From positions 6,284 through 52,526 of the forward strand of contig PS015256.1 of assembly GCA_048213135.1 (NCBI GenBank): DNA of 46,243 nucleotides. The letters run 5' to 3'. Within the stretch, counting starts at the first letter, position 1. Each line of letters begins with the position of its first letter. This stretch comes from Reclinomonas americana ATCC 50394 (taxonomy: Eukaryota). Positions 1 through 38,365 of the stretch are shown here, in pieces. The translations under genes and the position numbers were made by a program. The notes beneath the pieces were generated by a model. The model ran no database searches and had not been told where the DNA came from. It saw nothing but the letters and a program-made list of their open reading frames with translations.

Positions 1-606
1 CTTGTTGCTGGCGTGGCATCGCAGCAAGATGATGAGCTCATCCTCGGCCGTCGTCCACTCGTCGCTTCTCACATTGGGATCCAGGTGATTCCAGTAGCGC
101 TCTCGGCACTGTTTGCCGACGCGACCGGAGCCGAGCATACGCGCCACCAGCGACCAGCGACTCGTGCCGTGCACAATCACCAGCTGGATGTCGACGAGGA
201 GAGACAAGTCAGCGACCAAAAGAAACGAAATGAGAGAGCGTAAAAAGCATGCGCAACTCGACGCAGACGCTCGTCTTCCTCGGCGGTCCACACGCGCTTC
301 GAGGAGCCGGAGCGCTGGAAACGACCTGTGTGTGCCCGCGGTGAGTGGCCAAGGAGGGAGAGGGAGAAGGAAAGGGAGAGGGAGAGGGAGAAGGAAAGGG
401 AGAAGGAAAGGGAGAGGGAGATGGAAAGAGAGGCAGGGGAAAGCAAGAGGAAACGCACGTTCTTGCGTGTTCTCAATCACTTGCAGCAGCTCTGATGCGG
501 TGGCTGATGTTCCCATGGGGCTCGACTCGGACGCTGCGTTGTCACCGCCGCAGTCGGTCACATGGACGACGCCACCGGCCGGCGACATGAGCATGGGCGA
601 CGACAT
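1..606 (-). CDS. R2R3-Myb transcription factor (Myb-A); 3' end runs off the window, true start may lie upstream
   Basis: Removing introns 458-326 (GTGCGT..CAG) and 257-184 (GTTGCG..CAG) gives KRVWTAEEDERLRRLVIVHGTSRWSLVARMLGSGRVGKQCRERYWNHLDPNVRSDEWTTAEDELIILLR, with typical Myb Trp spacing and the KQCRER..NHLDP motif. Confidence 0.9.
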   Translation of the reverse strand, partial: MSSPMLMSPAGGVVHVTDCGGDNAASESSPMGTSATASELLQVIENTQERAFPLAFPCLSFHLPLPFLLPFLLPLPLPFLLPLPPWPLTAGTHRSFPALRLLEARVDRRGRRASASSCACFLRSLISFLLVADLSLLVDIQLVIVHGTSRWSLVARMLGSGRVGKQCRERYWNHLDPNVRSDEWTTAEDELIILLRCHASNK

Positions 607-959
607 GGTGGTTGGCGGTGGTGGTGGTGGTGGTGGGGGTGGTAAAGGCTGGAGGGTGTCAGCGGGTAAAGGTCTGCGCACAACCAGCGAGAGAAAAAAG
701 GCAATGCCGCGAATTAAGCAACCACAACACCCACAAAGCAGGCTTCACCAAATGGACAGCGCACAACAAGGAAAGCAGCAGTGATGCGAGGGGTGCGCAT
801 GTGCAGCGCGCGATGACCGTTCAATTGGAGGTGGAGGTGGGAGAGGGACGGAGAAGGGGGGAGGAAAGGGGGAAGGTGAGAGGGGGAAAGAAAAGGAAGG
901 GGAGAGGAAACCAAGGTGAGTTGGAGCGATTCCTTGGTCGAGACAAGTAGAGCACCGAT

Positions 960-4357: not shown

Positions 4358-4850
4358 TCACCACCCTCGCAAAGTAATAGCAAACTGATCCCACTCCTTC
4401 ACAGCTGCGTGGCTGTGAGACGTGATGCATAAGAGCTGCGCTTCCAGTGTGACCAAAAGCCGCTCAACATCCTCTGCGACTTCCATCTTCGGCAGGCAAG
4501 CAGCAAGCACTCGCCGCATCGCCATCACTGTCTCTTGTGCCTCCTGCGTGCGCTGCGCCATCATGCAGTCGTTGTAGTGCAACACCACATACATGTGGTT
4601 CCCGGTCGCTTGCACCCCAGCAATCGTCTCCGGCTTGAGAAAGGGATTGCTCGCCGGGTCCACGTACCGCCTGTTGTCGGAGAAGTACTCGAACTCCGCC
4701 GCGAAATGCCTGTCGCGCATCGCTTGCTGCGAAGGAGTGCGAGTGTGCGGGTTGCGGTAGGAGGCGACGAGTTCTTCGAAAGTCAGGTCATCGCGGGTCG
4801 ACATGGATTTGATGCGTGGCAAGAGGTCCTGCAGGGCGACGTGTGGCATG
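4358..4850 (-). CDS. Hypothetical protein, unknown domain, copy B
   Basis: Open frame YRNPHTRTPSQQAMRD..YVDPASNPF..GNHMYVVLHY..TLEAQLLC..KEWDQFA aligns with the ORF at 5617-6078 through conservative substitutions. Boundaries uncertain. Confidence 0.6.
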
Positions 4851-5616: not shown

Positions 5617-6078
5617 TCATCGACCACCGCTGTCGCCACCTCCCAATGCCGTCGCAAACTGACGCCACTCCTTCAGTCCTTCTTCGGAGTGACAGCGGAG
5701 ACATTCGAGCTGCGCGTCCAAGGTAAGCAAACACTCCTCGATGCGCTGCATATGGCCGATCGCCACCACGTCCATTTCACGACGCAAACGCAGCCAGTTG
5801 CGCAGGCAATCCATCGAGCTCATCACCTGCTGCATCTCGTACGCGCGCATCGCCGTCATGCATTCGCTGTAGTACAACACCACCATCACGTGATTGCCGC
5901 TCGCCTGCAGCGCGGCAATCACCTCCAGGTCGATAAAGGGATTGCTCGCCGGCTCCACGTATCGCTTGCTGTCGGAGTAGAACTCCAACTGTGACGCGTA
6001 ATAATTGTCGCGCATCACTCGCTGCAAAGGCGAGCACTTGTGCGGGTCGCGGTAGAAGACGGCGCTCGCGAGCTCCAT
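5617..6078 (-). CDS. Hypothetical protein, unknown domain, copy A
   Basis: YRDPHKCSPLQRVMRD..YVEPASNPF..GNHVMVVLYY..TLDAQLEC..KEWRQFA; paralog of 4358-4850. Start taken at MELAS (6078) and is uncertain. Confidence 0.6.
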   Translation of the reverse strand: MELASAVFYRDPHKCSPLQRVMRDNYYASQLEFYSDSKRYVEPASNPFIDLEVIAALQASGNHVMVVLYYSECMTAMRAYEMQQVMSSMDCLRNWLRLRREMDVVAIGHMQRIEECLLTLDAQLECLRCHSEEGLKEWRQFATALGGGDSGGR

Positions 6079-6122: not shown

Positions 6123-8034
6123 ATGGCCGCGTTGCACGTGACAGGTGCGTCGCCTCCTCCACCACGACGTCCACTCGCTCGCTCTCACTGCTCACTCACA
6201 GGACTCGCTGGCTCCGGCAAGCACACGCTGCTCGTGCAGACATGCGCCTCCTTCTCCTCCTCGTCGCTGGAGTCCACGTTCTGGGTGCATCACTTTACGC
6301 CGGCACTGCTGCAGCTGTTGGAGAGTGCGACGCAGGAGGTTGATGGGGCGTTGCAGGTGGAGGCGTTGGAGGCGGCGGGGGTGCTGTTGAAGCGGCTGGA
6401 GGAGTGTTTGGTGGAGGTGCGAGAGGGGCAGGTGGAGCAGGAGGAGCTGCGGCGGTGTGCGGAGGCGGTGGTGCGGGTGTGTCGGGAGCATGGGTTGGTG
6501 GAGGTGGTGTGGAGGGATGCAGGTGGGTGGGTGGGAAGGAGGGAGGGAGGAGAGAGGGAGAAGGGAGATGAATGCAGAGGCTCTGTGAGGGTGGCAGATA
6601 AGGAGGAGTGGATGAGGAAGCTCTCTCTTTCTCGTGTCTCTCCTCTCTTTGCAAGCTGGACTGTGAGTATCAAGTATTTGGGAATCGCGGACTTGGCTGC
6701 CTCCTCTCTTCCCTCGCTTGCTCTTGCCCTTGGTGTGCGAGGAATCTATCTCCTCCTGTCTTGTGCTTTGCGATCAACGACCAGACTTGCTTATAATACG
6801 TGACCCAGTGTCAAGGGCTCTATGTGTTGGAGAGAGTGGCTTGCATTTCTTTCCCCGTTTTTTCTGAGACAACTCGCTCCACCGTTACCCCCCCTCCGCA
6901 GTCGTGCAGAACGCTTTTGCCTTGAGACATCACACGGCACCCGAGTGTCCATCATGGCTGGCGTAGTTTTGTTTTTCTGCCTCCCCCTTCGCACATTCGC
7001 GATTCCGACTTCTTATCCTTCGTGTGGCGCAGCGTTCTCGACCAATTCGACCGCCTCGCCACACCTGGCGCCCGGCTGACCGCCGAGGATGTGGCGCGCC
7101 TCGGCTCCGTTCTGCACCCACAGCTGCTGGCGGAACCAGTGTCACTGCCCGACGGCACCACGTGCGTCCACTGTCCCCCCTCCTTCGCCTCCTCGCATCT
7201 CCTCACACACTCTTCACACAGCCTCGTCACCGACTCGAGTCTTGCCGCCGCCTCCGTCGACATTGACACAATTCTCTTCCTGTGCGCCGCCTCTGACCTC
7301 GCGCAGCTGCCGGCCGCCCTCGATGCCTTCCAGCAGCTGTGCACACGCCACAAGAGAGTACCGCACATTGCCGTGGCGCTGACGCACACCGACGCACTGT
7401 TTCTGTCGCTGCCGCCCGACTCGGCGCTGCCGATGAGTGCCGCCTTTGATGCGCACGGCCAGGTGTCGTGGGAGGGCGTGGTGTTTCCGTCACACCGACT
7501 GTCGTTCCTGCCGCGCGAGTTGATGGCGTCGTCGCCGGCGGGCACGCTTCGGGAGGACGAGTGGTATCGCACAGGGCAGGCGATGCAGGCCGCGATGGTG
7601 GAGCCAGGTGTGTGTGTGTGTGAGTGGCAAAGGAGTGGGAGACACTTCCTTCTCACCCTTGTTTACGTGGCAGACGCCGTGGCGCTGGCCATGGAGCGCC
7701 GCCCCGGTTGGATTCCGCTCCCACGACGCGAGCGACAACGGTACGCCGAGGCACTCCGGCAGCTGTGCCCCGAGTTCGAGTGCGGCGATGAGGACGACCT
7801 GGCGGGTGTGTGTGTGTGCATCGATGCAAGTACAAGGAGTGGTGCGTCTCACACTGACGTGTGTGCACAGACTTCACGATCCTGAACGCGCTGGCATGCG
7901 AGGCCAATGCCTTTCGCGAACGCGCGGCTGGTCGCGACTTGCGGATATTCGCCGTCAACATGCTGGACCAGGACGATGCGGTGGCGCTGGTACAGTCGTT
8001 GGTGGAGGAGGATGGGGGTGGCGTGACGAAGTAA
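6123..8034 (+). CDS. Highly divergent heterotrimeric G-protein alpha-subunit-like protein (probable pseudo-GTPase)
   Basis: Exons 6123-6144, 6201-6522, 6902-6962, 7033-7161, 7222-7607, 7674-7805 and 7871-8034 join in frame through GT-AG introns. Galpha landmarks occur in order: LHVTGLAGSGKHTLL (P-loop), a helical insert ending WRDAVVQNAF, LDQFDRLATPGARLTAEDV, IDTILFLCAASD, IAVALTHTD, LRQLCPEF, RIFAVNMLD. Confidence 0.72.
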
Positions 8035-8980
8035 ACAACGAACTTGTCCCCCAGTCCCATTTCTCCGACATGCATGCAGCGAGAGCAGCAGCAGCAGCAG
8101 CTCTGGTCTGGATCTCTTACAGCTCACTCTCTACCCTCGCCTGCTGCTGACGCCCTCCTGTCACACAGCCACTTGTTTTTCTGCTGATCATCCTCGCTGC
8201 TCGTTACGCATCACTCTCTCTCTCTCTCTCTCTCTCGACTCTCGTCTCTCTCGTCTCTCGTCTACTCGTCTCCTCTCGTCGTCGTACCGTCCGTACCGTA
8301 CCGTCGTCGTCGTACGTCGTCGTCGNNNNNNNNNNNNNNNNNNNNNNNNNNNNNNNNNNNNNNNNNNNNNNNNNNNNNNNNNNNNNNNNNNNNNNNNNNN
8401 NNNNNNNNNNNNNNNNNNNNNNNNNNNNNNNNNNNNNNNNNNNNNNNNNNNNNNNNNNNNNNNNNNNNNNNNNNNNNNNNNNNNNNNNNNNNNNNNNNNN
8501 NNNNNNNNNNNNNNNNNNNNNNNNNNNNNNNNNNNNNNNNNNNNNNNNNNNNNNNNNNNNNNNNNNNNNNNNNNNNNNNNNNNNNNNNNNNNNNNNNNNN
8601 NNNNNNNNNNNNNNNNNNNNNNNNNNNNNNNNNNNNNNNNNNNNNNNNNNNNNNNNNNNNNNNNNNNNNNNNNNNNNNNNNNNNNNNNNNNNNNNNNNNN
8701 NNNNNNNNNNNNNNNNNNNNNNNNNNNNNNNNNNNNNNNNNNNNNNNNNNNNNNNNNNNNNNNNNNNNNNNNNNNNNNNNNNNNNNNNNNNNNNNNNNNN
8801 NNNNNNNNNNNNNNNNNNNNNNNNNNNNNNNNNNNNNNNNNNNNNNNNNNNNNNNNNNNNNNNNNNNNNNNNNNNNNNNNNNNNNNNNNNNNNNNNNNNN
8901 NNNNNNNNNNNNNNNNNNNNNNNNNNNNNNNNNNNNNNNNNNNNCGTTACCGTACGTACGTACGTACGTACGTCGTCGTC

Positions 8981-9186
<206 letters not shown>

Positions 9187-9259: not shown

Positions 9260-11958
9260 ATGCCTCCTCGACCACATGCACCTTCCCCTGGTCACTCTTC
9301 CGCGACTCGGCCACCACCTCCACACACCTCCTCACCGCACCCTTTCGCATTCATCGCGAGTGCGCGCGCCAACATCGCGCATGGTTGCAGCTCAATGCGC
9401 AGCTGCTTAGCCTCACTGCACCGCGATATGGCGCCGAGCAGGTGTTGTGGGATGAGCAGGAGGAGGAGGCGGCGAGTGAGGCGATTGTGCGGGCGGGATA
9501 TCGTCTGCGTCGGCATGCGCAGTTTGATAGGGTGAGCGGAGAGAGGGAGGGCGAGGGAGGGAGGGAGGGAGGCAGTGTGACTGCTGTTCTTGGTCTTGAT
9601 CACCTGGGTGACTGCATGCAATCTCGGGAAACGGTCGTAGCTTGCAGTGAGATTTGCTTGCTGTTCTTGGGCTCGAGCTGAAGGAGTCAAGTGAGGAAAA
9701 GGCTTCAGGGTGTGTGCGTCTCGGGAACGGGTGGCAGTGTTTCAGTGAGAGCTGTGTCATCGCCTGCTGAGAGACAAGTGAGGGGATTGTCGGGCGTGTG
9801 GCTGTATTCGTGAGAAGGCCTCGAGAAAGCTGTGAGGAAGAGCAACTGTCTGTGAATCTCGAGTGGTGGCAAGGCTGGCTGTGCGACAACGAGTGTTTGC
9901 AGCTCTCAGTCTCTGGGGAGTCAAGTTGGTTGTGTATGTGAGGAAAAGGCTTCAGGGTGTGAGGAAGAGCGACTGTCTGTAAATCTCGAGCGATGGCAAG
10001 GTGGCAGTGTTGCAGCGAGGTTTTGCATGTCTTTGCATCGCGGTGCAGAGAGAATGCGAGGAAACGTTTCCAGCAGTGAGCGCATTGCGTGTCGAAGATG
10101 GGAAGCGGGAATGGTTGCGACTGCAGCTACACTGTTGTCTGTTGCAGTCGCTATGCTGAGAGGCAGCACCGTTTCCTTCTCTCTTTCTCTCTCCCCTCTC
10201 TTCCCCTTTCGCACCTCCTCACTTCCCCCTCCTCCTCCCCACAGAACACCGGCTACTTCGACATGAACTCTGTGGTGCAGCTGCCTCACCCTCGCCCTCC
10301 CTCCCCTCCCTCGCCCCTTTTCCACCCCTCATTTTCCGTCGTCCTCGACAATGCCGTTGCGTTTTCCCCTTTGTTCACCACCTTCCCCCATCCCCCTCAC
10401 TTAATGCACTTCAGCTGGTCTCCCCCGACGACGAAGTATTCACGGCGCAACACGTCTTTCTCGCCCGCTCATGTATGCCGCGCAGTCGCGACTTTTCGTA
10501 CATGTGGACAGCGGAGTCGTCGGTGCTGCTGGTCGACACGGTGTTGCCGCTGCTGCAGCACCACTCGGACGCATTCTTCCACATTATTGTCGAGTCGCTC
10601 ACGCGCCTGATTCAGGTGTGGCGCACCTCCCCGTGCTGCAACACGCTCCCCTTCTCAACTCAGCTGCGTACAGGTGTGGAGCGAAGTGTATCCGAATCGC
10701 AGCATCCTCATCCTCGCCAAGACGAGCCACTACGGACCGGCTGTGACCTACGAGCTCTTTGAGAGTGTGGGCATTCCGCGTGAGCGAGTTTCGTAGCGTC
10801 GACGCATGTGGTGGGTCAAAAGGTGCTCTCTTTCTTACTTTCTTCGCACAGATCATTCTCGATCCACCACCCGTGATGGCCCGCAAGGTCTACTTTGTCA
10901 GCGGCGTGTCGTGCTGCCAGCCGCACCCACAGTTGGTCACCGAGTTGGCGCGGGTGGTGAACGTGGTGCATGGTGAGATGGTGCGCGTTGCCATGCGAGA
11001 GGTGTTTGAAGGTGCGCCGGGGGGAGGGAAGTGCAAAGGGAAAGGGAGTGGAGGGAAAGGGAGGAAGGTGTACGTAATGCTCACGATCAATCACCGATTG
11101 ATCTCGCGGTGAGAGAGAGAATTGCGTAGACTTCATATGAAAAAGGGTGGAGGTGGGGGGCGGAGGGGGGTGGGTGAGAGAGAGAGGGGGAGGAGAGAGA
11201 GAGAGAACTGCATGCGTAGGGTGCAGTGAGTGCCTACTCGCTTACCGCACTCAGGCAGTCGATGCACTCCCTCATCCGCTCACTTGAGACGCACAGCATC
11301 CACGCTCTGCATGCTCACAAGCCCTTCTCCTCTCTTATCCTTAGGCCAGCAACTCTGGTGGTCCTCGCCCGCCCACCTCGCCCACCACCGCCGCCGCCGT
11401 CGCGTTCTCATCCTCCGTCGTCTGGGCACTCGACAACTCACCAATCACGACGAGGTGTGTTTCCCCAGTCCCCTCTTCCTTTCCTCCATCCCTTCCTCAC
11501 ATCTCCCACTGCAGGTGATTGCCATGATGATCGACAAGTTCCCGCACTTTGACCTGGCGGTGATGGGCCCCTCCGCCTCGGTGGCGGAGGGCATGGCGCA
11601 GGCGGCTCGTGCCGACATTGTGTTCGGGCCTCACGGCGCCGGCTTTGCGTTCCGCGCGCTGGTCGCTCGTCGGCCGTGTGCACACGTAGAAATTACGCCG
11701 GCGTCGGGCTTCCCCGCCAGCCAGCCGTGGGATCCGTGTCAAGTGGTCGTGGCGGTGGCGCAGGTGAGTGAGAGATGAGGGAGGGGAGCGACTGATACAA
11801 AGAGCGTGCTGTTCACTGATCTGTTTGTGCAGGGCTGTCAAGCATTCGTGTACACGGACAAGAATGCCACGCGCAACACCGACCTCTATGCGCCCGTCGG
11901 CGACGTGCAATGGTTGCTGGAGCAGGCGGATCATTACCTCGAATCGCAGGGTGGCTGA
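9260..11958 (+). CDS. Glycosyltransferase family 61 (DUF563)-like protein, multi-exon; 5' end probably in the gap
   Basis: DAFFHIIVESLTRL, RVLILRRLGTRQLTNHDE and ARADIVFGPHGAG..HVEITP occur in the order typical of GT61. The last exon GCQAFVYTD...ESQGG* stops at 11956-11958. Confidence 0.7.
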
Positions 11959-13503: not shown

Positions 13504-16473
13504 TTACACCCACGGCCACCCGGTCACCGCCGCCGACGGCGACACCCCACCAAGCACCCACATGTCGACGGANNNNNNNNNNNNNNNNNNNNNNNNNNNN
13601 NNNNNNNNNNNNNNNNNNNNNNNNNNNNNNNNNNNNNNNNNNNNNNNNNNNNNNNNNNNNNNNNNNNNNNNNNNNNNNNNNNNNNNNNNNNNNNNNNNNN
13701 NNNNNNNNNNNNNNNNNNNNNNNNNNNNNNNNNNNNNNNNNNNNNNNNNNNNNNNNNNNNNNNNNNNNNNNNNNNNNNNNNNNNNNNNNNNNNNNNNNNN
13801 NNNNNNNNNNNNNNNNNNNNNNNNNNNNNNNNNNNNNNNNNNNNNNNNNNNNNNNNNNNNNNNNNNNNNNNNNNNNNNNNNNNNGGCGGCGGACGACATG
13901 ATTTCGGGACCGATTGCCGATGACCCTCCAGTGGCCAAATCGTCAAATACCGAGTCCACCACGCCTGGTATTAGTGACGGTGGTGGGGGCGGTGGCGGAA
14001 GCGAGAGAAACTCGGCCGACGTGCGAATGCTGGCGGGCAAGTGTAGCGAGAGCGGGCGCGGCGGCACAATGGCGGCGCGCGTGGGCGACACATTGGCCAC
14101 GGGTGTCGTCGGCTGCTGCATCCAGTTGTCGCGCAACTGCGCGACCACCAAGTGCGGCGCCGGCGTGCGCGGATCTGCAGCCGCTTGCTGCTGATATGCC
14201 ATCATCTGTGTGTCCACAGAGAGCTGCCACGGAGTGGTCGGTGTGCCGGCAGCAGGTGCCGCATGCTGCTGCTGCTGCTGTGCTGCTGCTGTTGCTGTTG
14301 TTGCTGCTGTGGTTTACATCGTTTTCGCGGCGGAGCGCGCGGCCGACTNNNNNNNNNNNNNNNNNNNNNNNNNNNNNNNNNNNNNNNNNNNNNNNNNNNN
14401 NNNNNNNNNNNNNNNNNNNNNNNNNNNNNNNNNNNNNNNNNNNNNNNNNNNNNNNNNNNNNNNNNNNNNNNNNNNNNNNNNNNNNNNNNNNNNNNNNNNN
14501 NNNNNNNNNNNNNNNNNNNNNNNNNNNNNNNNNNNNNNNNNNNNNNNNNNNNNNNNNNNNNNNNNNNNNNNNNNNNNNNNNNNNNNNNNNNNNNNNNNNN
14601 NNNNNNNNNNNNNNNNNNNNNNNNNNNNNNNNNNNNNNNNNNNNNNNNNNNNNNNNNNNNNNNNNNNNNNNNNNNNNNNNNNNNNNNNNNNNNNNNNNNN
14701 NNNNNNNNNNNNNNNNNNNNNNNNNNNNNNNNNNNNNNNNNNNNNNNNNNNNNNNNNNNNNNNNNNNNNNNNNNNNNNNNNNNNNNNNNNNNNNNNNNNN
14801 NNNNNNNNNNNNNNNNNNNNNNNNNNNNNNNNNNNNNNNNNNNNNNNNNNNNNNNNNNNNNNNNNNNNNNNNNNNNNNNNNNNNNNNNNNNNNNNNNNNN
14901 NNNNNNNNNNNNNNNNNNNNNNNNNNNNNNNNNNNNNNNNNNNNNNNNNNNNNNNNNNNNNNNNNNNNNNNNNNNNNNNNNNNNNNNNNNNNNNNNNNNN
15001 NNNNNNNNNNNNNNNNNNNNNNNNNNNNNNNNNNNNNNNNNNNNNNNNNNNNNNNNNNNNNNNNNNNNNNNNNNNNNNNNNNNNNNNNNNNNNNNNNNNN
15101 NNNNNNNNNNNNNNNNNNNNNNNNNNNNNNNNNNNNNNNNNNNNNNNNNNNNNNNNNNNNNNNNNNNNNNNNNNNNNNNNNNNNNNNNNNNNGCCCTGCA
15201 CGTGGAAAGGCGGCATGGTGCGCGGCGACACCTCGTCCATCTCCTGGTCGTCACCAGCAAAGCCGTATCCGTCGCCCCCTCCTTCGTACTCGAGTTCCCC
15301 TTCCTCTTCTCCTTCCTCTTCTTCGTCGGCGAATTCTCCTTCTCCCTCTTCGACCTGATGACCGTAGGGCGCGAGTGGAGCGGCCACCACGGCGGCTGCG
15401 CTCATTTCGTGATCGTCGTCGGTCTCCATGTGCACTGACTGCGCCGGCGCCGCGGAATAGAAGCGAATGCTCACATCGCTCGACGCCAGATCGTTCTCGT
15501 GCACCATCACACTGATCTCGGAGCTGGAGGCTGTCGACGAGGTCAAGCTGTTTCTCCGCGGTCGATCGCGTGGCGTCGACATTCCACTCGTGCCGCCGCT
15601 ACCCATGCCACCACCACCACCATTACCGTGAACCCCACCGCGACCGGCGATCGTGCTACGTGTGCCATACGAGTGGTGCTGGCGGGCGCTGGCGGGCGCC
15701 GGTGGCAAGTCGTCCTCGTCGAAATCGAAACCCTCATCGCCATCGTCCGACTCATTGCTGTCTGTGTCGTCGCGCATGCGCTTGCGTGGACTCTCCGACT
15801 CCTGGCAACGGAAAGGGGGGGAGACGTGAGCGTCGATAAGCAATATAAGAAGACTGATATCGATTAAAACTTGCCATGAGCACCGGCAGCTCGGGGATGC
15901 GTCGACACGCGGCCGCAAACGACAAGTCCAACGAGTCGAACTCGCCACGCGACACACGCCGCCGCAGATTGGAGAACCAGCTGCGCGAGGAATCGTTGGC
16001 GTGAGCGAAACGCATCGCGCGGAGAGCGCGACTCGCCACAAACGTACCGATTCTTGATGCTCGAAGGGCTCCTGCCTGGCAGCGCCATTTGTAGCACGGC
16101 CCATTTGTTGCCGCAGTGCTCCCGCAGAAGCAGCACGCGCACGTCCTGCGTGGGGAATGACAAGAGTCGGAAAATCGAAAACAGCCGGCGTCTCTCTTCT
16201 CCACACAAACCTCCTCGGCCTCCCACGGATCGGTACGCAGATCGGGATCGAGATGATTGCAGAAGCGCTCGCGACACTGCTTCCCCGTGCGTCCGGTGCC
16301 CAGTCTCCGCGCGACCGCCGCCCAGTGGCCACGTGGAATCGCTTGCACGGCCCTGTTGGTCGTAGCACACACATCATGATCAATGATCTTTTCTCGCACA
16401 ATACTTGAGCACCTGTGGCAAGAGAGAGAGACGCAACTCTCTCAACCGCGCATCCTCCCTCTCCGTCCACACG
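13504..16473 (-). CDS. R2R3-Myb transcription factor (Myb-B), main body, interrupted by gaps
   Basis: VWTEREDARLREAVQAIPRGHWAAVARRLGTGRTGKQCRERFCNHLDPDLRTDPWEAEEDVRVLLLREHCGNKWAVLQMALPGRSPSSIKNRWFSNLRR, followed by acidic, Gln-rich and Pro-rich regions. The 3' end is uncertain because of gaps. Confidence 0.88.
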
Positions 16474-19466: not shown

Positions 19467-20710
19467 ATGGACGCCCTCGCCAACTCGCCCCTCGTGTGGA
19501 GCGTCGGCGCCGCCACCCTCGTCTCCCTCCTCTCCGTCGTCGGCATCTCCATCATCCCGCTGACCACCAAACGCTTTTCGCGCGCCAATTCCGCCGACGC
19601 CAAGAAGAAAAAGGACGACGATGCAGTCGACACGGCCTCCTCCGCCGCTGCCACGTCACCACTGCCCAGCTGGGCCATGTGCTTCCTCCTGGCACTGGCC
19701 GCGGGCTCACTGATGGGCGAGTGTGCCACACACTCACTGCCCGAGGTGTGTGTGTGTGCATGTGCGGCGATTCTTTTTCCGCGAGTTGTCTCTCTCACAC
19801 TGAATGGCAGGTGTTCTCCGCGCACGATCACGACGAGTCCTCCAGTCGTGGTCTCTACTTCCTCCTCGGCTTTTTCGTGTGCGCTGTGGTCGATTCCATT
19901 GTGCATGTGTTCAACTCGCACCACCACCACCATCATGGCCACAAGCACCACCAGCATGACAAGAACAGCAAGCACACGCGTGTGTTTGGCTGGGTGAATC
20001 TGTTTGCCGACCTCGTGCACAACTTCTTTGACGGCCTGGCTCTCGCGGTGGCGTTCCGTGGCTCGTGGACCGCCGGTGTCAGCACGACTGTGGCGGTGAT
20101 TCTGCATGAAATCCCGCAAGAGCTGGGCGATTTCGGTGTGCTGCTGGCAGCCGGCTTCTCGGTGCGTGGTGCACTGGTCGCCAATGCTATCAGTGCCCTG
20201 TCGTGTGTCGTGGGCTCGGTGGTGCCGTTTGTGCCGGCGCTGGTGATGTTGGCCGACAAGGGCGGTGCGTTTCACAAAGCGTTATTGTCAGTTGTCAGTC
20301 TCCTCTCCCTCACTCTGGATCCCTGAGCAGTGTCGACGCCACCGTGGATGGCCGCCGTGTCGGCCGGTGCACTGATCTACACGGCATGCGCCTGCATCGT
20401 GCCGCAGCTGGTGGAGGAGATTAGCCGCAGTTCGCGTCGAGGCACCCTGCTGAATGCGGTGCTGGCGCTGCTGGCGCTGTCGATTGGCATCTACGTGACG
20501 GTCATTGCGCACTCCCATGATCACGGCCACGGCGGTCATGCGCATGGTCACAGTCACGGACACCACGACAGCCACGGACACGCCCACGCTCACCACGAGA
20601 GTCACGGACACAGTCATCACCACGAGAGTCACGGACACAGCCACCACCACCATGGCAGTCACCAACATCATGCGATTCTCCACCAACACGACCACGACCA
20701 CCACCATTAA
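19467..20710 (+). CDS. ZIP (SLC39, LIV-1 subfamily) zinc/metal transporter
   Basis: Introns 19746-19810 and 20265-20330. Motifs LALAAGSLMGECATHSLPE, NLFADLVHNFFDGLAL, ILHEIPQELGDFGVLL and AGALIY, plus a His-rich loop and tail. Confidence 0.93.
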
Positions 20711-20768: not shown

Positions 20769-23700
20769 TTATGAGGGTCGAGTCGCCGCCGCCGCCGCCG
20801 CACCACCACTTCCACTACCACCTGTCGCCGCCGCGGCCGCCACCGACGGCACGGGGATCTTGAGCTCCTCGAATTTGTTGCGATACACGCGATTCTACGA
20901 CACAGCAATGAGCATCAGCAGTCGATGCATGCAGTGAAGGCGCGCGAACGTGCATACCTGTTCCACGGCCACCTGATGCTTGAGTTTCAAATCCTGCAAC
21001 TGGCGGAAGAACTCGGGCGTAAAGGGTGCCAGCTCGGCACGCAACGCCTCGTTGTCCTCTTTGAGTTCCTCGACTTGCAGCTTGTGCTGCTCAAAAGCGT
21101 CGCGGATGGTGTGGTAGCGTTGTAGCAGCGATTCGTGTTCTGCGAGGAGGCGGGGAGACGGAAAGAAACGTGAGTAAAGAATTGATTGGGTTGTCTTTGC
21201 TTGTGCTTTCCCTGTCGGTCACTGTGCGCTCCCTCCCTTCTCGGTCACTGTGCGTTCCCTCCCTTNNNNNNNNNNNNNNNNNNNNTCATCTCCATTCCCC
21301 TCCTTTCCCCTCTTTCTCCCTTCCACATCACCCAACCCAACCTTTCGCCTGCGTGCCGTCACCACCACTCAGCGCACGCGCCAATCGCTGACTCAGTTCC
21401 TCTCGCTCTCCCTTCAGCCGCTCCACTTGTCGAGAGAGCGCATCAAACTGTGCTCCGGGAAGAAAGTCAGAATGTGCTAGCACGCGTAGAGAGAGCGCAC
21501 ACGAAAAACAAACCTCCATCGAGCGGTCGACAGACGAGCCAACACCAGCACTGCCTCCGGTTGACGACTTGGCCTGCTCCAGCTGATCCACCGCACGTTG
21601 CAACTCTTGCTTCAGCTGCAGAATCAGTGCATTCTTGCGCTCAATGTCGCCGAGCTGTGCACATTCAGGATTACAAGATGCATCTCGACGACCACGCAGA
21701 GCACCTTCCACACAAACCAGTCGCTGGCACTTTTCTTCGGAAGCCGCCAGTGCACGTGCATCGGCGGCACCTCCAGCAGGAGGCGCAGCACCTGCAGCAC
21801 CGGCGCGAGCACGAAGTTCGCGTTCCTTGTCGCGCCACTCGTTCTCCTTGTCGTGCAAGCGCTGTCGGTAGGTCTCCGCCTCCAATTCCACACTGGTGAC
21901 TTTCTGTGCCAGCGCCGCACGCTCGCGATCCCACTGTGCCCGCTCCGCATTCAACTCGGCGATGGCGTCCTTGTTCCTCCGCATCGCTTGCTTCTCGCCG
22001 CTCAGTTTTTGCTCCAGCTGCTGTTGCGCCTCGGTGGCTCTGCCGCGCGATGCAACAAAAATAAGTCGCCATTCTCCTCGTCTTCCCCTTCCCTCACAGC
22101 AACATACCTGGCCAGCTTCTGCTGCAGTTCCTCGACCTGCGCACGCTTCTCCTCCAGCTGCTTCAGCTGTCCCTCCAGTGCCGCATTGGCGTCCTTGACA
22201 GCGCGCAGTTCACGCACCACCTGTTCGAGCGCCGAGTGAGTGCAATGCATGTATGAATGGAGAAAGAGGAAGCACAGCAGCGCACCGCCATGTGCTTGGA
22301 GGGCGGGACTGCATTCTTCTGCAGCGTGTCGTTCTTCGCCTGCAACTTCTCCACCAGCTTGCGCAGCGCCAGCACCACCTTTTCCATCTCCGACGCACTT
22401 TGCTGGCCTGGAGGTGCTGCCGACCCGGCGGCCGACCCACTGGCACCTCCAGCACCCACTGCTCCTCCCGCTCCCCCACCAGCTGCAGTCTTTCGTTTGC
22501 CCGGGGCTGCATGCACGCATGATAAGCTTCTCGGTTTCTGGCATCCTTGCAAGTGGCTGGTTACCTTGATTAGCGATATCCTCGGCGTGGTCCTGCAGCG
22601 CAAGGTTGATGATCTCCAACTCACGCACTCGTCTCTCCAGGCGTGAAATCTGCCACACGCCAGCCGTCAGCAAACCAAATCAAAACCCACATCACAACAT
22701 CACTCTCTTTCCCTTTCCTCCCTACCTTGGCATCTCCCGTCTCATGCTCGAATCTCAACTCCGTGTTCTTCGCCTCCAGCTCCAGATTGCGTGCCTCGGC
22801 TGCGCGCAGACGCTGCTGCAGCACCTCCTCCTGCCGCAACAGCTGTGTGACACCGGCCTCGCCGTCGGTCGCAGCCTCAGCGGCGGCGGCCAGAGTGCGC
22901 GAAGTGGCACGTACTTCGGCGAGCTCCGTCTGTTCCACCAAAACAAGCGCATGTGAGACGCACATGACTTCCACACCCACACACGCACCCCACAATGCAC
23001 GAAACTGTCGCTGCCTCGAGGCGGCGAGTCAACGACTGAATCTCGGCCGGCTTGTCGACCTCGGCAATCTGCACGCGAAGAGGTAAGAGCCGCGCATTCC
23101 CACCATTCACATGTCACACGCGCTGAGCGGCCTTCACCTTTTGGAGCCTGCTGATTTCTCGCTCAAGGTCTGAAACACGCTGCCGCGCCCCGGAAATGTT
23201 CGACAGCTCGGCCAAGTCCACACGCGGCGCCAGCGAAGGCACACCGCGGCCTTGCTGCTGCTGCTGCAGTTGCCGTCCGAGATCCGAGACGCGAGTCTGC
23301 AAATCGTCGCGCTCGCGCGTAAGTCGCTCAATGGTGCGTCGATCCTCTTCGCGGTCTTTGTTGGCCTGCTCCAGCATGTGTTTCTGCACGCGCGTGCGCC
23401 AAGAATTCAGACAATAGCAGTGCTGATAATGATTCGCACCAGCTGGATACACACCTTTTCGTCGACCTTGGTCTTCAAAATCGCCAGCTGCCGCTGCATC
23501 TTCTTCTCCAGCTCCCATCGCTCAAAGGCACCTTCGAGGGTTAGACGACTATCGTCAGCTCGTAACACACAAGAAGAGCGTGAGAGAGAGACACACACAA
23601 TCCACTCACTCTCTTGATCGCCAGCCTTCGCCTCCTCTGCAGGTCGACTACTCGGTCGATCCTTGCTAACGGCCATCTCTAGCCGTCTTTCCGAGTCGTG

Positions 23701-37700: not shown

Positions 37701-38365
37701 CGAAGAAGAAAAAGAAGAAGAGAAGGAGAAAGAAAGGAGGAGGACGAAGGAGAAGATGAGGAAGAAGAACAAGTGCAATGTGGAGAAGAAGGGGAGGCAC
37801 ACCAAGGAGAGATCGAGACGAGCAAGGAAGAAGAGGAAGAGGAAGAGACAGTCAAGAGTAAGAGACAAGAGGCACTGACCGTTCTCCGCGGCACACGCCT
37901 GCGCCACAGCCACTGCCGCGGCCATATTATACCGCCACAGCTCATGCACCGAGGCCACGCGCAGCACCAGCGTAAAATACAAATTCCCCACCGTCGTTGC
38001 ACCCTCCACCTCATCCTCTTCGTCATCCCTATCGAAATCAATCGTGCGCGGCGGCATCTTCACCTGCGCATTCGCAGCTGGCGATGCAAATGATCGACCT
38101 GATCGACCTCGACCTGCACGTTGTTCCTCTGCCAATACGATCATTCCGTGTGGAGCATCATCGCGATCGACCAGCTCACGAGCATCGTCCTTACGTTTTA
38201 CATTGTGAGCTGGCCTGGATGCGTTTCTTTATGTATTTCTTGCGCGTGTTGTCGTACCTGCGTTGACTCTGTGGATTGGTAGTACACTGCGCGATGTCGA
38301 CCGAGCGATTCGGTTTGGAGCTCTTGTTGGAAGCGGCGCCAGAGGAATGCCGAGCGCAACAACAT
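36898..38365 (-). CDS. Biotin--protein ligase (BirA-like, no HTH domain)
   Basis: STESTQDDAR, IVLAEEQRAGRGRSGRSFASP, GNLYFTLVL, IKWPNDVWIGERKVCGLL, GIGVNV, and a C-terminal G.AVGFTEDGLLRV..GDV. Confidence 0.92.

Follow-up and report, generated by a model that had tools for sequence, protein, structure and literature searches.

A putative seven-exon gene for a probable, highly diverged G-alpha-derived pseudo-GTPase in Reclinomonas americana

Pseudo-GTPases have a GTPase fold without nucleotide binding or hydrolysis. Among G-alpha subunits, deviant catalytic motifs are described for some proteins of Dictyostelium, Naegleria and plants, and some of the deviant forms are without N-terminal tethering residues and show reduced or lost nucleotide-dependent activity, as reported in a review (PMC8584482). 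The review also describes the plant XLGs as acting nucleotide-independently, with a long Cys-rich N-terminal extension and with G-beta-gamma and RGS binding retained (PMC8584482). Here we describe a locus of Reclinomonas americana ATCC 50394 at positions 6123-8034 (+) of a 46,243-nucleotide stretch of contig PS015256.1 (assembly GCA_048213135.1, positions 6,284 to 52,526 of the forward strand), referred to as the window. Judging by sequence, we read this locus as a real seven-exon gene for a G-alpha-derived pseudo-GTPase that has neither alphaN nor working switches, with a probability of roughly 0.6; descent of the protein from G-alpha, taken by itself, is a fairly confident proposal.

The encoded protein shares with canonical G-alpha (PF00503) the order and spacing of its parts, the P-loop Lys and the Asp of both G3 and G4. 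It differs in having no alphaN or lipidation, a His in G1, neither the Arg nor the Thr of switch I, DSSLA and THTD in the places of G3 and G4, a switch II that is 8 residues shorter, an unrecognisable G5 and alpha-5, and about 100 extra residues after G4. With the XLGs and other deviant G-alphas it would share a G-alpha-derived domain and deviant catalytic motifs (PMC8584482). Set against the XLGs, it is without the N-terminal extension, its switch II is shortened and it is far more diverged. We do not regard it as an XLG, since a Cys-rich extension at the N-terminus is missing and the protein starts 7 residues before the P-loop. In common with pseudo-GTPases it appears to have a GTPase-type sequence architecture in which the catalytic motifs are replaced, and a scaffold role is predicted.

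The original prediction for this DNA was of seven exons spliced into one frame that the list of open reading frames (ORFs) does not contain, and the gene model bears this out. The seven joined segments give a single open frame of 398 amino acids at 6123-8034 (+), with GT..AG borders on all seven exons and a TAA stop at 8032-8034, and no single ORF at 6123-8034 displays the spliced frame. The segments are:

6123-6144 (+), exon 1: contains the sole in-frame ATG; its 7 codons encode beta-1, which directly precedes the P-loop
6145-6201 (+), intron 1: 57 nt, GTGCGT..CACAG; in frame and stop-free, retention possible
6202-6522 (+), exon 2: degenerate P-loop GLAGSGKH (6202-6224), then about 95 residues with three long predicted helices, making up most of the helical insert
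6902-6944 (+), exon 3: 43-nt micro-exon that aligns with the conserved alphaE region of G-alpha after the Trp
6902-6962 (+), alternative exon 3: 61 nt, donor GTAGTT
7033-7161 (+), exon 4: alphaF/linker-2-like motif (7037-7099) and beta-2 region, with Gly153 and His157 at the switch I positions
7222-7607 (+), exon 5: DSSLA (7232-7246), shortened switch II, beta-4 (7265-7297), alpha-3 and THTD (7382-7393)
7674-7805 (+), exon 6: 44 codons of coding-type composition, similar to nothing searched
7871-8034 (+), exon 7: the final 54 codons, with the TAA stop at 8032-8034

The introns are 57, 379, 88, 60, 66 and 65 nt long, in that order, with the donors GTGCGT, GTGGGT, GTGTCC, GTGCGT, GTGTGT and GTGTGT, and CAG ends all six acceptors. 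The donor of exon 3 is ambiguous between 6944 and 6962; either choice keeps the frame and scores equally, the latter giving 404 amino acids. A six-exon model that omits the 43-nt micro-exon is also open (385 amino acids). Retention of three introns (57, 60 and 66 nt), all of them in frame and free of stop codons, is possible on sequence alone; third-position GC of intron 1 in the read-through frame is only 0.37. After THTD, the tail of exon 5 comprises about 70 residues without detectable similarity.

Base composition and intron style were compared with those of the window's other genes. In the spliced frame, GC is 0.72/0.455/0.81 at codon positions 1/2/3, and the coding-type pattern is found in each exon separately (third-position GC, GC3, 0.64-0.86; second-position GC 0.38-0.50). 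No such periodicity was observed in five of the six introns, the 57-nt first intron having a GC content uneven by position; the pooled introns have a GC content of 0.55. Six in-frame coding segments of the window (from the ZIP, biotin ligase, glycosyltransferase family 61, cyclase and coiled-coil genes and the neighbour gene, all described below; a seventh, out of frame, was left out) gave 0.58-0.73/0.37-0.50/0.74-0.92. Two introns of the ZIP gene were fixed by homologue alignment, at 19746-19810 (65 nt, GTGTGT..GGCAG) and 20265-20330 (66 nt, GTGCGT..AGCAG), and the introns of the locus match them in size and signals, with the 379-nt intron being longer. Of the ORFs that lie antisense or in alternative frames at the locus, four were searched, and none matched a Pfam family at E<=1. 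Because the frame is open and both codon-position GC and intron style match those of the window genes, we conclude that the locus is, on these signs, a genuine coding gene, or else a copy inactivated only very recently. The intact spliced gene that had been predicted is therefore supported by the open frame, the GT-AG exons, the codon GC and the ZIP-like introns.

To compare the spliced protein with G-alpha directly, a profile was built from G-alpha sequences fetched by a degenerate DNA pattern for G3/switch II, which gave at least 118 metagenome or metatranscriptome contigs. Among the matches listed, 36 ORFs with a start, a stop, a P-loop and 320-430 amino acids were kept, the other 82 loci being partial or intron-split; Pfam G-alpha was found in all 36 (best E=1.3e-141). 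The HMMER profile of these 36 sequences matched the 398-residue spliced protein at 6.2 bits (E=3e-4 for a single target), a score reached by none of 2000 shuffles of the protein (maximum 4.4), and aligned residues 60-151 with profile positions 78-179, which correspond to alphaE-alphaF and linker 2. Residues 1-151 alone scored 9.2 bits (E=3.8e-5, 0/3000 shuffles) in a single collinear domain that runs from the P-loop through to linker 2, residues 12-150 aligning with profile positions 47-178. Scored separately with HMMER, the parts of the protein gave the following:

Residues 1-59: best match at the family P-loop; the score is reached by 30 of 3000 shuffles
Residues 60-151: alphaE-alphaF/linker 2, E=1.3e-4; 0 of 3000 shuffles
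Residues 152-240: beta-4; the score is reached by 66 of 3000 shuffles

The hhalign comparison aligned residues 105-214 with profile columns 150-281 (E=3.2e-4) and, with a pre-built profile and greedy realignment, residues 1-380 with columns 59-383 (Prob 70.6, E=3.9e-5); the score of 42.9 was reached by none of 169 shuffles (mean 14.7, SD 2.8). The global mode returned a meaningless 17-column alignment, which was dropped. Single exons were also aligned, with the shuffle counts for exons 2, 4 and 5 taken from separate local hhalign runs:

Exon 2 (as the 6123-6524 read-through): E=8.3e-4, columns 62-82, the P-loop; 0 of 238 shuffles
Exon 4 alone: E=7.1e-4, its residues 2-23 with columns 182-203; 0 of 761 shuffles
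Exon 5 alone: E=0.002, its residues 13-42 with columns 243-282; 0 of 205 shuffles
Exon 7 alone: E=0.62, no profile columns

Taken one at a time, exons 2, 4 and 5 fall on the P-loop, alphaF/linker-2 and beta4-alpha3, respectively, in the order of G-alpha. Two negative controls, 958 six-frame fragments of the window (>=25 amino acids) and 254 non-G-alpha ORFs or proteins, scored at most 3.1 and 2.9 bits, respectively. The micro-exon had been selected on splice and frame logic, yet it improves the G-alpha fit: dropping it lowers the HMMER score from 6.2 to -1.6 bits (E from 3e-4 to 0.071) and weakens the hhalign E from 3.9e-5 to 4.8e-4. Retention of intron 1 left the G-alpha score unchanged. A Fisher combination of the separate parts gave p values from 1.3e-6 to 3e-5, with order and spacing uncredited, and identity between the spliced protein and G-alpha is about 17%. 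Kinship with G-alpha is favoured because the best signal lies outside the generic P-loop, in the alphaE-alphaF/linker-2 stretch, which we take to be specific to G-alpha, and because the spacing is G-alpha-like. We consider the evidence for this kinship moderate, with statistical support that is modest but consistent. The G-alpha landmarks that had been predicted to stand in the right order were thus recovered for the first ~240 residues, which are collinear with the profile and beat all shuffles, but not for the last ~160 residues, which are without a match.

The hhalign alignment was then read at the G boxes, with the canonical residue positions given by G-alpha-i1 numbering. GLAGSGKH falls on the family P-loop, with the Lys retained and the Mg-binding Ser replaced by His, and the positions of the switch I Arg and Thr hold Gly153 and His157. 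The G3 motif DVGGQ pairs with DSSLA (D176-A180), in which the Asp is retained and Gly-Gln is replaced by Leu-Ala. Against the profile, switch II has an 8-residue gap and alpha-3 is missing 10 residues at its start. At G4, NKxD is aligned with THTD (7382-7393), of which only the Asp is retained, the alignment here being of low confidence. The G5 TCAT motif and the C-terminal alpha-5 helix were not recognised in exon 7 by hhalign (E=0.62) or in residues 241-398 by HMMER. Of the features that mark the Pfam G-alpha family, the G1 Ser, the switch I RxxT, G3 with a full switch II, NKxD, G5 with alpha-5, and alphaN with its lipidation are all missing.

All of the short strings on which the original prediction was based (GLAGSGKH, DVARLGS, TDSSL, THTD and NML) are present in the spliced protein, and its claim that the catalytic and G-box residues are replaced holds at the aligned positions, where Ser, Arg, Thr, Gly and Gln are substituted and NKxD reads THTD. 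Its placing of G3 at TDSSL was not confirmed, as hhalign pairs DSSLA with G3, one residue off; switch II, which it described as largely deleted, has the 8-residue gap. The assignment of NML to the G5 CAT is unsupported, given the E of 0.62 for exon 7 and the lack of an HMM match to residues 241-398. About 145 residues follow G4, compared with roughly 50 in G-alpha, so the extra length of ~100 residues that had been described as an insertion is there, but the region has no similarity and an insertion is only one interpretation of it.

From the P-loop Lys14 to the linker-2 Asp148 there are 134 residues, and a further 28 to the G3 Asp; in G-alpha-i1 these spacings are about 127 and 27 residues. 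Between G1 and switch I lies a helical insert of ~120 amino acids, whose last third aligns with alphaE-alphaF/linker 2 of G-alpha; homology to G-alpha is seen for this last third only. An AlphaFold 2 (AF2) model of exon 2 as a single sequence has helices at 21-44, 50-73 and 79-95, with a predicted local distance difference test score (pLDDT) of 60.7. Foldseek with this model gave 195 matches at E<=10, all of them generic helical bundles and none at E<=0.001. Together, the alignments give statistical support to an architecture in which the protein would keep the G-alpha order of beta-1, P-loop, ~120-residue helical insert, alphaF/linker-2, beta2-beta3 hairpin, beta-4, alpha-3 and beta-5.

At the N-terminus, residue 1 falls on profile column 59 in the hhalign alignment, the start of beta-1. 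The protein begins with Met-Ala 7 residues before the P-loop and has neither a Gly2 nor a nearby Cys; without Gly2 there is no N-myristoylation site. No alphaN-like fragment was found among the 958 six-frame fragments across the window, which include the introns and the upstream region. The prediction that the first Met sits just before beta-1 and that alphaN appears to be missing was supported in both respects. The region upstream is occupied by a divergent gene:

5620-6078 (-), divergent neighbour gene: an orphan of 153 amino acids, GC3 0.79, with 44 bp between its ATG and the one at 6123

The neighbour has a tandem paralogue of about 150 amino acids at 4361-4807 (-), with 45% identity between the two (E=2e-43). 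A search of the neighbour against 5.8 billion proteins gave 59 candidates and no homologue, and neither of the tandem paralogues exceeded any Pfam cut-off. Because a real gene on the opposite strand starts 44 bp away, no alphaN exon would fit upstream. The neighbour and the G-alpha-like gene are arranged head-to-head and may share a bidirectional promoter.

Standard library searches were run on contiguous translations: two read-throughs, of exons 1-2 (6123-6524) and of exons 4-6 (7034-7804), and exons taken singly. The exon 1-2 piece matched the nSTAND NTPase 5 family (nSTAND_NTPase5, PF25199), which is alike in the P-loop and the next helix, at E=2.9e-4 and 21.1 bits over 50 residues only, below the cut-off of 34; Pfam also gave a PRK match (E=0.069). 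Two of the 36 true G-alphas give the same nSTAND_NTPase5 cross-match at E<=1e-3, and the match is therefore neutral toward G-alpha; likewise, a weak PF25199 match alone is no sign of a STAND NTPase. The exon 4-6 read-through against 5.8 billion proteins in a word-indexed search gave 3179 candidates, none at E<=0.01. Exon 5 gave 218 pattern matches in metagenome contigs and no confirmed relative among them, and in the ESM Atlas only weak leads (<0.9) that name Dynamin_N/MMR_HSR1, Gtr1_RagA and AIG1 rather than G-alpha; exon 2 gave no usable match there. A tblastn search of the spliced protein against the window found no paralogue, the best off-locus match (24897-25169, residues 42-140, E=0.003, 32% over 100 amino acids) being judged a chance match.

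Several results weigh against a G-alpha origin. Pfam G-alpha was unmatched at E<=10 on 6123-6524, 7034-7804 and 7873-8031 (exons 1-2 and 4-7). Against the PDB sequences, phmmer with five queries returned 0, 2, 3, 0 and 0 matches, all at E>=0.5 and none to a GTPase, and phmmer of exons 4-6 against 1.84 billion representative proteins found no G-alpha; the sole match in that search, a repeat protein with 15 matched stretches, was judged spurious. No homologue or orthologue of the G-alpha-like protein was found in any search. In the directed test, the last ~160 residues (241-398), with the proposed G5, had no HMMER match, the 6.2 bits of the spliced protein are far under the >25 bits of 71/71 true G-alpha ORFs or fragments, and the hhalign shuffles have a heavy tail (maximum 31.9 against a mean of 14.7). 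AF2 models of single-sequence pieces were poor, with a pLDDT of 40.0 for 7034-7804 and 60.7 for exon 2. The family hypothesis had also been picked after the same motifs were viewed, and the combined p is borderline after correction for ~24,700 Pfam families. P-loop families number a few hundred, and correction for these only would leave the combined p significant. The original prediction had named the lack of a G-alpha profile match as an outcome that would tell against it, and for the unspliced pieces this is formally the outcome, with Pfam and the PDB sequences silent. As a gauge of database coverage, the ZIP exon gave 379 matches with a best identity of 59%, showing that the organism is without a close relative in the protein collection. 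Since a conserved ZIP peaks at 59% and a real paralogue pair matches nothing, the missing homologues weigh little.

An orphan P-loop protein without G-alpha ancestry, either a diverged STAND-type or another helical-insert NTPase, would owe its resemblance to chance and to the generic beta-alpha-beta pattern. We consider this doubtful, although the only library-wide match is to a STAND family, the Pfam, PDB and large protein searches are without G-alpha, the p values of the directed test are indecisive after correction for all families and the ESM Atlas leads for exon 5 name other GTPase families. The STAND match loses its force with the cross-match of true G-alphas. The strongest signal comes not from the P-loop but from alphaE-alphaF/linker-2 (E=1.3e-4, 0/3000; exon 4, 0/761), which we take to be specific to G-alpha, and three exons match at the positions and in the order expected of a G-alpha, with 28 residues between the linker-2 Asp and the G3 Asp compared with 27 in G-alpha-i1. 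In addition, the second hydrophobic strand that ends in Asp comes ~175 residues past Walker A, which would be too far for the Walker B of a STAND protein.

A non-functional relic, be it a dying G-alpha pseudogene or an ORF that was never expressed, would account for the degeneracy of every G box and for homologues being absent from all searches. However, neutral decay to ~17% identity should break the frame, whereas the seven exons are open with GT..AG intact, and the GC3 of 0.81 equals that of working genes while the introns are at 0.55; the absent homologues are uninformative, as the ZIP gene and the paralogue pair demonstrate. A relic is accordingly improbable in our estimate. Still further down we place a mis-modelled canonical G-alpha whose alphaN, switch II and G5 lie in overlooked exons. 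The ambiguous donor of exon 3, the three in-frame, stop-free introns and the N gaps from 8327 on leave it some room, but none of the 958 six-frame fragments, with introns and upstream region included, exceeds 3.1 bits against the G-alpha profile, the opposite-strand gene starts 44 bp upstream, intron retention gives no gain in score and the frame reaches its stop codon before the N gap. Such a mis-modelled gene is very improbable.

If the locus does encode a G-alpha-derived pseudo-GTPase, loss of GTP hydrolysis is predicted because the Arg finger, the catalytic Gln and the Mg-binding Ser/Thr are all missing, and switching would be lost with functional switch I and switch II gone. AlphaN and switch II are the two canonical G-beta-gamma contact surfaces; without them, canonical G-beta-gamma binding would probably be lost, and the lipid anchor is missing too. 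The product would then most likely be a soluble, constitutive binding scaffold on a G-alpha fold, either nucleotide-free or permanently nucleotide-loaded. With the P-loop Lys and both the G3 and the G4 Asp retained, a nucleotide might be held as a structural cofactor, and the unmatched C-terminal ~160 residues may hold a lineage-specific function. The fullest version of this proposal, to which we give only tentative credence, is an expressed and selected G-alpha descendant that lost the five G boxes, switch II and alphaN, kept the helical-insert architecture and added a ~100-residue module, and that would act as a nucleotide- and G-beta-gamma-independent scaffold of a lineage-specific class beyond the XLGs.

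The suggestion in the original prediction of a possibly undescribed class was too strong, given the deviant G-alphas that have been reported (PMC8584482). Degenerate G-alphas as such are already known, and the locus would be an unusually extreme variant of them. If the reading as a G-alpha-derived pseudo-GTPase is true, the locus illustrates the extent to which a G-alpha can diverge with the gene intact, with hydrolysis, switches, membrane anchor and G-beta-gamma handle lost and only the two-domain architecture left, and it widens the known range of nucleotide-independent G-alpha relatives, which includes the XLGs and the Naegleria and Dictyostelium forms. It would also be a natural test of what a bare G-alpha scaffold can do. 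Its practical value is limited for now.

Other features were noted in the window, across which Rfam and tRNA scans found nothing:

About 19490-20560 (+): ZupT-like ZIP metal transporter gene, Pfam Zip E=4.7e-26; the named matches are bacterial or archaeal
34828-35118 (+): class III adenylate/guanylate cyclase domain, Pfam Guanylate_cyc E=9.8e-8, in an ORF fragment, with N gaps and long low-complexity translations (Ser/Leu, Glu/Arg and poly-Arg) on its flanks
37239-38228 (-): biotin/lipoate protein ligase ORF, BPL_LplA_LipB E=3.4e-8, with a long Ser/Leu/Pro-rich low-complexity interruption
11230-11775 (+): ORF with a glycosyltransferase family 61 (GT61) domain, E=9.8e-7
10160-10759 (+): ORF upstream of the GT61 ORF, no Pfam family
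1-744 (-) and 15752-16441 (-): ORFs resembling Myb DNA-binding repeats on visual inspection only
About 21300-32200 (-): long coiled-coil-like ORFs, probably exons of one very large structural gene

The assembly at the window is fragmented and repeat-rich, with many N gaps (8327-9030, 13570-13880, 14350-15200 and elsewhere) and long (CT)n, (GT)n and (GAG)n microsatellites.

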